Below are positions 8,162-20,980 of a DNA stretch of 64,000 nt, in pieces (position 1 is the stretch's first letter; each line of letters opens with the position of its first letter). This stretch comes from a virus. Its lineage: Duplodnaviria > Heunggongvirae > Uroviricota > Caudoviricetes. The position numbers and the translations under genes are program-made. The notes beneath the pieces are model-generated. The model did not search any database and had not been told where the DNA came from. It saw only the letters and a program-made list of their open reading frames with translations. Where the stretch lies: IMG/VR virus record IMGVR_UViG_2609460125_000009; one strand, given 5' to 3'.

Positions 8162-8448
8162 GCAATTTAACTTCTTGGGACTGGTGGTTGGCCACCTATT
8201 TCTTAGCGGCCGGAGTCGCATTCGCCTTTTACGTAGGTCAGTTAGTCGTAAAACTGCTGCTGATTAAATTTGCCAGTCATAAACGTATCGATGATGGTCT
8301 GTGGCGTCTTGGCACCCTGGTGGAAACTCGCTACGGGCAACTTAAGGAGAACGAAACCATTACTATCCAAGCGAAACGATTCACTGCCACCATCACAAGA
8401 ACACCTAGTCGTAGAGTGGCCTTGATCAAAAAAGTCACAACCGAATAA
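8158..8448 (+). CDS. membrane protein (96 aa)
   Basis: N-terminal TM helix (WWLATYFLAAGVAFAFYVGQLVV). Confidence 0.5.
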   Translation: MSNLTSWDWWLATYFLAAGVAFAFYVGQLVVKLLLIKFASHKRIDDGLWRLGTLVETRYGQLKENETITIQAKRFTATITRTPSRRVALIKKVTTE

Positions 8449-9224
8449 AAACATGGTGATAAGTATTTACTTACTTATCTTTTATGTATAAGATGACTTT
8501 GTTTTCGTTGAGACGCGACTGTTTGAACTTAAATACAAGTGCAAACGAAGAAGTCTATCTGGCAGTAGCCTAATAAGCCAAACACCAGCGAGGTCAGTTT
8601 CCAGCCTCGTTACCGAAATGGGACACACTGAGCGAGTGTGATTGCAGAACGCAGGAGGGAACATTCATGTTCCCTCCGATGAAGTAACAGAATGGGCGGT
8701 TGGTATATTTTCAACTCCATATGACTCCCGGATTCTTAGCCACTGACCGCCCATCCTGTTACGTCATTTTGTTCAATTATGTCGTTTATACTGGGTTAAA
8801 AAGCGGCGACGTAGCCCGGCTGGTATGGTTAGCCAGCACACAACGTTGAGGCCATTACATTTTTATCAATTCTAAGGTTCTATTCACAGAGATACCGGCG
8901 AGCGTTGATATGTAACATGTTGGGCAAACATTCAATCGGAGTAGTGGCCTCAACGTTGTGAAGACAGGATTGTTGTGTAGGTTTAACCACTGTTGCCATT
9001 GGTGCCTGTTTTCACAACAAATGATTCCATACATCACATTGTATAAATTACAAAGTAGGTGCTGTCCTCAGAAACATCATCTACTTAAAGATTTTGCCTT
9101 CTATTGAGCGAAGTCGAAAACGTCTGGCACTAACGGAAAGTGCAAGTAGCGGTGTGTTTCCTGGCAGAAACTAACACCGCCGCGATTGGCACTGTTGAGT
9201 AATAAATACTGGCAGTGCTGAATT

Positions 9225-9299
9225 GATGGTGTAGCTCAGCGGTAGAGCAGTTGGCTGTTAACCAACTGGTCGGTGGTTCGAATCCACCCACCATCGCCA
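9225..9299 (+). tRNA. tRNA-Asn (anticodon GTT)
   Basis: Manually folded cloverleaf: acceptor gatggtg/caccatc, D-arm gctc-agcggta-gagc, anticodon loop ctGTTaa, T-arm ggtgg-ttcgaat-ccacc, discriminator G + CCA. Confidence 0.85.
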
Positions 9300-9304
9300 A
9301 TTTA

Positions 9305-9391
9305 GGGGAGTTAGTCCGTAGAGGTAGCGGGGTAGACTGTAAATCTACTGTCATTGCGACTCGGGTGGTTCGACTCCATCACTCCCCACCA
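9305..9391 (+). tRNA. tRNA-Tyr (anticodon GTA), type II with long variable arm
   Basis: acceptor ggggagt/actcccc, anticodon arm gtaga-ctGTAaa-tctac, T-arm ggtgg-ttcgact-ccatc, discriminator A + CCA; D-arm pairing less clean. Confidence 0.75.
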
Positions 9392-9395
9392 AATT

Positions 9396-9471
9396 GCCGG
9401 TTTAGCTCAGTTGGTAGAGCGCCTGCCTTGTAAGCAGGATGTCAGCGGTTCGATCCCGTTAACCGGCACCA
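9396..9471 (+). tRNA. tRNA-Thr (anticodon TGT)
   Basis: acceptor gccggtt/aaccggc, D-arm gctc-agttggta-gagc, anticodon arm cctgc-ctTGTaa-gcagg, T-arm agcgg-ttcgatc-ccgtt, A + CCA. Confidence 0.85.
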
Positions 9472-9835
9472 ACACAACAGGTAAGAGCATTGGGCGAATC
9501 GGCGATACTGACCCACAAGCCCGTAAATCGATAGAGTCAGACCAGTGCTCTTACCGTTGTGAGGAAGTGCAGCTCTTTGAAGCAACCAGAAGATAAGCAT
9601 CTGGCTTCACAACACAACGATAAGATCATTACGGTTAATCGTCGTTCATGTGCACAATGACTGGTCGAAAGGTAGTGATCTTACCGTTGTGGTGGATTCG
9701 CAGACTGATGCGATAGCTTTCTTGGATGTTAGGGAAATGCGGCCGCAAATCTTCCCTTTCGCGAGCGGTGATCGTCCGTAGTCCTAATTGGCTGCACCGT
9801 ATGCCGGAGATTCAGTACCGGCCACCACAACGGCC

Positions 9836-9922
9836 GGAGAGTAGGGAGCATGGTGCTCAAGCGGTCTTGAAAACCGTCCCATTGCGCAAGCGATGATGGT
9901 TCGATTCCATTACTCTCCGCCA
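9836..9922 (+). tRNA. tRNA-like gene, probably tRNA-Ser (anticodon TGA), non-canonical D-arm
   Basis: acceptor ggagagt/actctcc, anticodon arm gcggt-ctTGAaa-accgt, long variable arm, T-arm gatgg-ttcgatt-ccatt, G + CCA; D-arm does not fold cleanly. Confidence 0.45.
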
Positions 9923-10077
9923 GACACAGCGTTGAGCGGTTTGGCCTTTTAATCACCCAGATTAAGACTCCGCTAACATAAACCAGACCGCTCAACGCTG
10001 TGATAGACAATTACGGCAGACGTTCTTAACCATAGCTTGCTAACATCCTAGCAACACTTTTTTTCAGCGCAAAATTC

Positions 10078-10100
10078 AAAGGGGCTTCGGCCCCTTTTTT
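10078..10100 (+). terminator. rho-independent terminator after the tRNA cluster
   Basis: aaaggggc-ttcg-gcccc followed by tttttt. Confidence 0.7.
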
Positions 10101-10143
10101 GCAACTGAAAGAGTCAAGTCTACGAACTTTGTAGGAAGAAATA

Positions 10144-10494
10144 ATGACCAGCAAAGATAACACACCACTAAAAGTCACCCCTGAACACATTGAACAACTC
10201 ATTCAAAGTGAACATTATTTCACTGCATATGATGCCAGCCACGGGGATAACTTCATCTCCGTTTACAATTCAAAAACAGATATCGACAAATGTCATGAGT
10301 CGTTAAAACTCTTAACGTTCTGCGTTATGGTTCTCAAAAATGGATATACCGTAACGGGAAAATCTGCGTGCGTAAGACCAGAAATCTTCAACTTTGATGT
10401 TGGTCGCGAGTACGCTCGAAAAGATGCTATCGATCAAATCTGGCCCCTGGAAGGCTATCTCCTGAAGCAAAAGTGGCATGAGGCAAAGCAATGA
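10144..10494 (+). CDS. hypothetical protein
   Basis: 116-aa ORF with AGGA RBS. Confidence 0.55.
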   Translation: MTSKDNTPLKVTPEHIEQLIQSEHYFTAYDASHGDNFISVYNSKTDIDKCHESLKLLTFCVMVLKNGYTVTGKSACVRPEIFNFDVGREYARKDAIDQIWPLEGYLLKQKWHEAKQ

Positions 10495-20162: not shown

Positions 20163-20435
20163 AAAGAATTATGGCGCTTGTTGAGGAAGTCACTCCTCTT
20201 ACGCACTTTGTTTTGCCATGCCGGCAGTTAGCTTCTGCCTTTGACTATTCATGCGGCAACCCCGCATTTCGCCACAATGGGCAATTCACTTTTATGGAAT
20301 AAACTGGCCGTTGTGTCGATTTAATTAGCATGGCCTTACCATGCTAATTTATTCAACTTGTACAATCCTACAAATCTATCCACTCAGGCTTACACCGTCT
20401 TCGTTATTGTAGAAATGAGGATCATCAGCGTTGAA

Positions 20436-20651
20436 TCAGCTTAGAGCAACGACATTTGCTGCTGCTGGGCCTTTAGCCCCATTCTCGATAGAGAATTCGA
20501 CCTGCTGGCCTTCTTCCAAAGTGCGGAAATTATTACTCTGAATTGCCGAAAAATGTACAAAAACATCTTTACTGCCATCAGCAGGAGAAATAAAGCCAAA
20601 GCCTTTATCAGAGTTAAACCATTTTACTAAACCAGTCATTTTATTAGACAT
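20436..20651 (-). CDS. cold-shock protein, CspA family
   Basis: [21 protein letters not shown] ... VFVHFSAI with RNP1/RNP2-like motifs; start moved to the internal Met matching the CspA N-terminus; ~300-nt leader upstream. Confidence 0.85.
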
Positions 20652-20980
20652 AGATATTACCTTCTTAATTTTGTGAGCCACATAGTGCGGCGAGAATTTG
20701 ATCTGTATAGATTGGGACTTACTTAGGCACTTAAGGAGGAGACTCACGAAGAAGGGAAATCAGAAGATAACACTGAACTGAGACTGCTTTACTAAAACTG
20801 CTTACATAAGGTCTGTCTTGCAAACCAACGATGCTATTAACGCATACCCCTTCTTTTCATGCAACCTTTATTTTTCAAAGATAACTAATTTTTGTCACCA
20901 TTGGTTTAGTAAACGTTAACGAACCAGACGATGCCAGACACCTTTACAGAGAACAGATGCCCGCCAATTGGCGGGCATCA

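Follow-up and report, generated by a model that had tools for sequence, protein, structure and literature searches.

Serine tRNAs that depart from the canonical cloverleaf have been described as allo-tRNAs, and an '(8/4) tRNA-Ser' class, found in bacteriophages among other sources, has been delineated (Mukai et al. 2017, PMC5389517). The class is characterised by a 12-bp branch divided into 8 and 4 pairs, a D-arm resembling that of tRNA-Sec, a long variable arm and G or U at position 73, while the Ser subgroup of the allo-tRNAs comprises those with serine anticodons (PMC5389517). Other 8/4 allo-tRNAs insert serine efficiently in E. coli, and one of them matches the activity of a native tRNA-Ser (PMC5389517; PMC7590224). 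Until now, the allo-tRNA class has mostly been studied from metagenomes and as an engineering chassis. The 8/4 tRNA-Ser(UGA) architecture is also present inside the L-arrays, the horizontally spread tRNA arrays described from cyanobacteria and other phyla (PMC8421152); no discussion of the 8/4 structure was found in the searched passages on these arrays. Among phages, the record of rV5 describes its tRNA-Ser as 'discovered using ARAGON', with the rV5 paper confirming that tRNAscan had missed it (PMC3606486), and the annotation of D6 reads 'apparent UGA Serine anticodon but AA not called by tRNAscan-SE'. Both records treat the gene as an oddity, without structural explanation.

In this study, a gene of the same family was investigated in the window, by which we mean the whole stretch of 64,000 nucleotides analysed (IMG/VR record IMGVR_UViG_2609460125_000009). 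We consider it, with a probability of roughly three in four, to be a functional tRNA-Ser(UGA) of the '(8/4) tRNA-Ser'/allo-tRNA class that decodes UCA on an SSU5/pHCM2-type phage-plasmid. The source of the window is a phage-plasmid of that type; the Escherichia phages Cyrano and CMS-2020a match the region at 96-97% identity, the tRNA block is common to D6 and P7, and among the products of nearby genes are an ATP-dependent DNA ligase, a glutaredoxin, a tyrosine recombinase and an HTH repressor, together with a gp49/66-family and a CobT-like protein. The (8/4) class was already documented, and the gene already stands as tRNA-Ser in public records. What is new here is that, judged by its sequences, a widespread tRNA-Ser of enterobacterial phages and phage-plasmids can be placed explicitly in the 8/4 class, with covariation evidence.

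Gene call and class membership

With ARAGORN, the window yielded four tRNA genes, each of them on the + strand (Table 1). The last of them is an 87-nt tRNA-Ser with anticodon tga at precisely 9836-9922, which is exactly where the sequence-only reading had placed a non-canonical Ser-like tRNA with anticodon TGA and had proposed an ARAGORN check. The anticodon loop, the long variable arm and the pairing of the acceptor and T arms that it had described were all recovered as well. The 3' end is encoded, with discriminator G73 at 9919 and CCA at 9920-9922. At gathering thresholds, Rfam reported tRNAs for the Asn, Tyr and Thr genes of the cluster and no family at 9836, where RF00005 remained below its gathering score of 29 bits. 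At a relaxed threshold, the best family at 9836 was tRNA-Sec (RF01852), with 46.6 bits against a gathering score of 47, so that the description of the gene as non-canonical was well founded. Its departures from the standard are an A instead of U at position 8, a D-loop of 3-5 nt and the 8/4 division of the acceptor and T stems. The odd look of the gene is explained by this selenocysteine-like 8/4 architecture, which the sequence-only reading had not recognised. It is likewise because of the 8/4 cloverleaf, and not because of breakage, that standard finders miss this tRNA-Ser or leave it unassigned in D6, P7, rV5 and hundreds of phage-plasmids of E. coli and Klebsiella.

Table 1. Coordinates of the tRNA-Ser(UGA), its arms and the accompanying features in the window.
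Feature	Position	Strand	Evidence or remark
tRNA-Asn(GUU)	9225-9299	+	ARAGORN, Rfam
tRNA-Tyr(GUA)	9305-9391	+	ARAGORN, Rfam
tRNA-Thr(UGU)	9396-9471	+	ARAGORN, Rfam
tRNA-Ser(UGA), complete, 87 nt	9836-9922	+	ARAGORN; R1 85.5 bits, E ~1e-23; Rfam tRNA-Sec 46.6 bits
Acceptor stem, 5' strand GGAGAGUA, 8 nt, paired with UACUCUCC at 9911-9918	9836-9843	+	Covariation, RNAalifold, energy
D-arm: GAGC 9846-9849 with GCUC 9855-9858, loop AUGGU 9850-9854 with conserved GG	9846-9858	+	Covariation
Anticodon arm: stem GCGGU/ACCGU, loop CUUGAAA, anticodon UGA 9868-9870	9861-9877	+	All 5 stem pairs covary
Long variable arm: 6-bp CAUUGC/GCGAUG, GCAA tetraloop, abutting the T-stem	9880-9895	+	RNAalifold, change within the lineage
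T-arm: 4-bp stem AUGG/CCAU, loop UUCGAUU	9896-9910	+	Covariation of pair 50-64
Long hairpin, 20-nt arms CACAGCGTTGAGCGGTTTGG / CCAGACCGCTCAACGCTGTG, starting 2 nt past CCA	9925-10002	+	Travels with tRNA-Ser in the lineage
Intrinsic-terminator-like hairpin GGGGC-UUCG-GCCCC followed by T6	10081-10100	+	Read from the sequence; partial Rfam terminator-hairpin match at 10076-10099

For comparison with its relatives, we assembled a family of 106 distinct sequences from two IMG/VR pattern scans and from phage records, and aligned them as alignment A2. The 3' junction was fixed in the first scan, while positions 7-9 and 64-66 were free in the second. The search patterns fixed the anticodon loop and the T-loop, and the covariation counts given below are per sequence. 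As an independent test, a covariance model, R1, was built from 45 family members, of which 15 come from bacterial genomes and all share less than 75% identity with the window gene; its automatically derived structure was again 8/4. With R1, the window gene scored 85.5 bits (E ~1e-23) with no non-standard pair; the other family members scored 63-86 bits, the host serT 41.4 bits and all other tRNAs at most 40 bits.

The tRNA-Ser shows every sequence-level feature that defines the (8/4) tRNA-Ser class (PMC5389517). The 12-bp branch is divided into 8 bp of acceptor stem and 4 bp of T-stem; the D-arm is Sec-like, with a pyrimidine at position 20 (the U after GG), although its stem has 4-5 bp rather than 6; the long variable arm, with its 6-bp stem and GCAA loop, is accompanied by G73; the anticodon is a serine one; and a profile of class members recognises the gene apart from canonical tRNAs. 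Occurrence in phages and detection through a high score with the Rfam tRNA-Sec model are shared too. The window gene differs from the described class in that its D-arm, with a loop of 3-5 nt, is not strictly a long stem with a tetraloop and its 5-bp anticodon stem is not extended (PMC5389517).

Among the host genes, E. coli serT (b0971), also a tRNA-Ser(UGA), has in common with the window gene the anticodon, the CUUGAAA loop, the GGA start, G73, CCA and a long variable arm, and the two anticodon stem-loops are identical at 15 of 17 positions. Nevertheless, serT, as verified in K-12, differs from the window gene in its canonical 7/5 branch, its large D-loop and the make-up of its variable arm, and its score with R1, less than half that of the window gene, indicates that the latter is not a recent copy of serT. 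An identity as tRNA-Sec was also considered. The tRNA-Sec (selC, RF01852) shares the acceptor stem of 8 bp, the long variable arm and a D-arm in which an extended stem carries a tiny loop; it has, however, a 13-bp branch (8/5) and the anticodon UCA reading UGA, its D-stem and anticodon stem have 6 bp each, and it works with SelA and SelB. The 12-bp 8/4 branch, the UGA anticodon, which reads UCA, the D-stem of 4-5 bp and the RF01852 score below 47 bits rule this identity out. The tRNA-Ser genes of rV5 and D6 belong to the same family and are 90-99% identical to the window gene, the rV5 copy being 91 nt long, with one extra A in the D-arm and a longer variable arm. The 4-nt difference in length from rV5 had raised the question of a D-loop deletion from a canonical ancestor, which was ruled out, as the difference amounts to that extra A and the longer variable arm and the rV5 copy is itself 8/4.

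Pairing of the acceptor, T, D and variable arms

Three structures that differ solely at the junction of the acceptor and T stems were counted on A2. At pair 8-65, the eighth acceptor pair (A8-U65 in the window gene, 9843 with 9911), A-U was found in 78 sequences, G-C in 15 and U-A in 2, with 6 unpaired, and 17 sequences were changed on both sides against none on one side only. The switch from A-U to G-C occurred at least twice independently and recently, between relatives that are 89-94% identical. Pair 50-64 behaved in a similar manner (A-U 85, G-C 15, C-G 3, U-A 2), with 20 both-side changes. On the other hand, pair 49-65, the fifth T-stem pair of a canonical tRNA, was G.U in 69 sequences, A-U in 9, G-C in 8 and unpaired in 19, with a both-side change in only one sequence, while pair 9-64 had no both-side change and was unpaired in 26. 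From these counts, it follows that the family has an acceptor stem of 8 bp and a T-stem of 4 bp, which together give a coaxial helix of 12 bp in the tRNA-Ser. When RNAalifold was run with no structure supplied, it returned the 8/4 fold with its 8-bp acceptor stem and paired the nucleotide of 'position 49' at the base of the variable arm (columns 46-67; C-G 73, U-A 18), with 23 both-side changes. In the window gene, this nucleotide is engaged in the closing pair of the variable arm, C9880-G9895. The fold energies calculated for the window gene were -32.9 kcal/mol for 8/4, the most stable, -31.9 for 9/3 and -29.5 for 7/5.

These data also bear on the alternative that the gene is a functional tRNA-Ser with a canonical 7/5 cloverleaf and a shortened D-loop, the 8/4 description being wrong for the window gene. 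G49.U65 can form as a fifth T-stem pair in the window sequence, so that a 7/5 fold is also drawable; ARAGORN reports the gene with its standard template; and U7-A8-G9 and U64-U65-A66 are invariant in the enterobacterial lineage, for which reason this lineage alone does not discriminate between the two folds. The case for 8/4 in the window gene hence rests on the covariation of the family and on the energy gap of 3.4 kcal/mol. The 7/5 fold is the less stable by that amount and loses one pair of the variable-arm stem, it would place three unpaired nucleotides before the D-stem, with an A at position 8, and its own 49-65 pair hardly covaries, whereas 8-65 covaries in clean Watson-Crick fashion and 'position 49' covaries at the base of the variable-arm stem. 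The features of a canonical 7/5 class II tRNA-Ser are not those of this gene, where A8-U65 is paired, the D-loop has 3-5 nt, RF00005 stays below gathering and 49-65 is unsupported. We therefore regard the canonical fold as quite unlikely. A 9/3 fold was considered as well, since U7-A8-G9 is fully complementary to U64-U65-A66 in the lineage, and was ruled out because 9-64 never covaries and fails in 26 sequences, while 50-64 does covary.

The remaining arms of the 8/4 cloverleaf covary as well. The sequence-only reading had held that the D-arm region forms no standard stem, and this has to be corrected. The GAGC/GCUC stem is present, and all 4 of its core pairs change on both sides, in 23-53 sequences each among the 106 relatives; A9850-U9854 is a possible fifth pair. 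In the family, the D-stem has 4-5 bp in 97 of the 106 sequences and the D-loop 3-4 nt (UGG or AUGG) in 89. Over A2 as a whole, 95.7% of the cells were paired, compared with 73.9% in shuffles and 41-53% when the partners were slid, and both-side changes were recorded at 19 of the 21 pairs, including all acceptor pairs, the 5 pairs of the anticodon stem and the 4 core pairs of the D-stem. As discriminator, 82 of the 106 sequences have G and 24 have U, and the GGA start is found in 90. All helices are intact in the window copy.

Distribution, variation and decoding

The tRNA-Ser occurs far above chance in the collections searched, with identical or near-identical copies in 573 PLSDB plasmids (from E. 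coli, Klebsiella, Salmonella and Shigella), 209 phage records and 331 of 5,426 complete E. coli genomes, where it bears the PGAP annotation tRNA-Ser. An allo-type tRNA is therefore naturally present in about 6% of the E. coli strains with complete genomes. In these genomes, 334 of the 336 copies are plasmid-borne. P7 and FV3 carry the gene unannotated. In a scan of bacteria with one genome per species, most finds of the 8/4 architecture came from Cyanobacteria, Saprospiraceae and Planctomycetota, with some from a few further groups; among the 89 distinct bacterial sequences, 55 had 8-65 paired and were unable to pair 49-65, and only 4 showed the reverse. The bacterial 8/4 tRNA-Ser loci examined lie within arrays of up to 26 tRNA genes. 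They correspond to the L-arrays (PMC8421152), which are chromosomal, whereas the window has a 4-tRNA cluster on a phage-plasmid.

The sequence-only reading had left undecided between a functional atypical tRNA-Ser for UCA and a pseudogene. Our data favour the first alternative, and the second is rejected, in view of the covarying helices, of lineage variants that mostly stay paired, of SerRS-type features and of the UCA bias. A decaying pseudogene or recombination-site relic with no function of its own would fit with the failure of general tRNA models on this gene, with the D6 copy, to which tRNAscan-SE gave no amino acid and which has a D-stem mismatch, and, for a relic, with the tyrosine recombinase gene 1 kb downstream. 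However, every helix covaries with compensated changes at every stem, CCA and G73 are retained, all but one of the 335 E. coli records that match keep an identity of 95-100%, and relatives span unrelated phage families. In the Klebsiella phage-plasmid copy, 89% identical, three pairs have undergone compensated double changes, of which two lie in the acceptor stem and the third lies in the D-stem. Of the 11 variant events within the near-identical E. coli copies, 7 preserve pairing, one of these being a double change from C-G to U-A in the variable-arm stem, and 3 break a pair, among them the D-stem change A12C of D6. Such variation in the lineage of the window looks as would be expected of a working RNA and not of a decaying one, and we hold the pseudogene or relic to be very improbable. 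A fragment of a host attachment site was also considered and ruled out, as only 2 of 336 copies lie on a chromosome and no host tRNA resembles the gene (serT, 41 bits with R1).

With respect to function, supplying UCA decoding for the element's own genes is most likely the role of this tRNA. UCA makes up 20.3% of the serine codons in the window (13.2 per 1000) against 11.1% (6.6 per 1000) in K-12 (P = 6e-8), a comparison of 59 heuristic window ORFs with one 50-kb K-12 sample that includes ribosomal-protein genes and the horizontally acquired gsp cluster. The codon comparison proposed by the sequence-only reading thus finds UCA about twice as common in the element as in the K-12 sample. ACA, which is read by the neighbouring tRNA-Thr(UGU), likewise stands at 27.7% in the window against 12.3% in the K-12 sample. 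The link between the codon use and the tRNAs is a correlation.

In the mechanism that we propose, the tRNA-Ser would be transcribed together with the adjoining Asn, Tyr and Thr tRNAs, and the RNase P and 3' nucleases of the host would process the transcript, in which the gene itself specifies CCA. It would then be charged by the host SerRS through the long variable arm, G73 and the G1-C72/G2-C71/A3-U70 end, features of the SerRS type that the gene does possess. Against this stands its first D-stem pair, which is G-C instead of C11-G24, a reported minor SerRS element of E. coli tRNA-Ser. Since the helix has 12 bp, EF-Tu could be expected to deliver the charged tRNA, and the GG of the D-loop in the compact Sec-like D-arm may dock on the T-loop. 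On the ribosome, the tRNA would read UCA, and probably UCG and UCU too if U34 is modified as in serT, and a fitness benefit to the element may be presumed.

A different purpose, immunity evasion rather than codon supply, would make the gene a spare tRNA-Ser whose unusual body, with its small D-loop, its 8/4 helix and its lack of U8, escapes enzymes of the host or of competitors that cleave or inactivate canonical tRNAs. This would explain the 8/4 architecture on mobile tRNA sets, and in the samples examined the 8/4 type was found in phages, phage-plasmids and horizontally spread tRNA arrays. tRNA-Asn and tRNA-Tyr belong to the target set of colicin E5, and tRNAs of both kinds are neighbours of the tRNA-Ser in the cluster. 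Phage tRNAs are, moreover, documented as a counter-defence against tRNA nucleases (PMC10264068). The anticodon loop, though, is identical to that of serT and the stem-loops agree at all but two positions, which gives no escape signature in the anticodon loop; no E. coli defence system targeting tRNA-Ser(UGA) was found in the literature searched; and the codon bias is already a sufficient reason for carrying the gene. On balance, evasion in place of codon supply appears unlikely.

The Sec-like body also raises the idea that the host SelA binds the tRNA-Ser, so that SelA would be sequestered, or part of the tRNA would become Sec-tRNA delivered by EF-Tu, with occasional selenocysteine at UCA. The Rfam tRNA-Sec model nearly accepts the gene, the 12-bp helix suits EF-Tu, and the long D-stem of allo-tRNAs and tRNA-Sec is the binding site of the SelA N-domain, allo-tRNAs having been used for Sec insertion (PMC7590224). 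Against this, the D-stem of 4-5 bp is not the 6-bp stem with tetraloop of tRNA-Sec, the anticodon is a normal serine one, and neither sel genes nor a SECIS-like context was found near the tRNA-Ser. The idea is speculative and, in our judgement, barely credible.

More generally, the 8/4 body might be no neutral peculiarity but a hallmark by which tRNA sets on the move, in lytic phages, phage-plasmids and horizontally spread arrays, have adapted, usable by SerRS, EF-Tu and the ribosome while invisible to host or rival enzymes that depend on the canonical core, and possibly able to engage SelA in selenium-using hosts such as E. coli. We put this forward as a doubtful proposal with a low probability. 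If it were true, the enzymes evaded would be tRNA-targeting defence nucleases, or modification or sensing that depends on U8 and a normal D-loop. For the functional tRNA-Ser(UGA) that we favour, E. coli offers a natural and tractable system in which the use of the 8/4 architecture by a mobile element can be studied, covering SerRS charging, interaction with SelA, nuclease resistance and UCA supply.

The tRNA cluster, its hairpins and relatives elsewhere

The tRNA-Ser lies at the end of the four-gene cluster, and the Asn, Tyr and Thr tRNAs are presumably co-transcribed with it. A simple scan from 8300 to 10400 found no sigma-70-like promoter. The 365 bp that separate tRNA-Thr from tRNA-Ser hold hairpins, and a search of them for a degenerate tRNA with ARAGORN and Rfam gave none. 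The tRNA-Tyr(GUA) is itself atypical, in that position 9 is followed by two additional nucleotides before the D-stem and the Rfam tRNA model gives it only 43.5 bits, a value near the one for the rV5 tRNA-Tyr (Cove score 43.9). Cyrano has no tRNA-Tyr, its Asn, Thr and Ser genes being contiguous, and this absence indicates that the cluster is modular.

Downstream, the two arms of the 9925-10002 hairpin are identical in Cyrano and in a Klebsiella phage-plasmid, and a CACAGCG hairpin begins 1-3 nt after CCA in 31 of 32 tRNA-Ser copies. This hairpin belongs to a family of long hairpins in the cluster (8839-8960, 9473-9562, 9610-9694 and 9925-10002, in addition to 9684-9695 with 9822-9833) that have arms of 14-23 nt, 36-126 nt between the arms and ends of the form CACAAC(G)...(C)GTTGTG. 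The arms vary from copy to copy yet stay complementary (GAGGCC/GGCCTC, GAGCGG/CCGCTC, AAGATC/GATCTT), and 8 of the 20 CACARCG motifs of the 64-kb window fall in the 1.2 kb that the tRNA cluster occupies. Hairpins of this kind were also observed in D6, Cyrano and Klebsiella phage-plasmids, and no Rfam family corresponds to them. A role in processing is conceivable, as is one as small RNAs or as boundaries of cassettes.

The GGGGC/GCCCC hairpin with its T6 run probably ends the tRNA transcription unit, as read from its sequence, though it was not listed by the terminator scan. Just upstream of it, a weaker terminator-like hairpin, TTGCTA/TAGCAA followed by T7, is found at 10036-10066, and the two together suggest tandem termination after the tRNA cluster.

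A few observations were made on related loci. Genes of the 8/4 tRNA-Ser(UGA) type were seen inside tRNA clusters of Nostoc, Microcoleus, Cylindrospermum, Neolewinella and a Kineosporiaceae MAG (our loci L178, L179, L182, L186 and L195); the Kineosporiaceae MAG has two adjacent tRNA-Ser genes, and Cylindrospermum has up to 26 tRNAs in 2.7 kb. On a beta-proteobacterial MAG contig with a phage-like tRNA cluster (L210, 3474-3551), an 8/4 tRNA-Ser is followed 130 nt downstream by an ARAGORN call of 'tRNA-SeC (tca)', possibly an opal suppressor of the allo type. In rV5 (L004, 1690-1788) and FV3 (L008, 689-787), ARAGORN reported, immediately behind the 8/4 tRNA-Ser, a 99-nt 'tRNA-???' with a 4-nt anticodon (atcc), which scores only 14.9 bits with the family model and is unannotated in both records. 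The Pseudomonas phage Pyxpy02 (L007, 1501-1590) carries a family member with 63 bits for R1 and the anticodon AGA instead of UGA, indicating that the 8/4 scaffold serves more than one serine isoacceptor. Elsewhere in the window, the Rfam cspA thermoregulator was matched over its full length at 20411-20829 on the - strand (185.7 bits, E 2e-49), from which we conclude that the phage-plasmid carries a cold-shock-protein gene with an RNA thermosensor leader.
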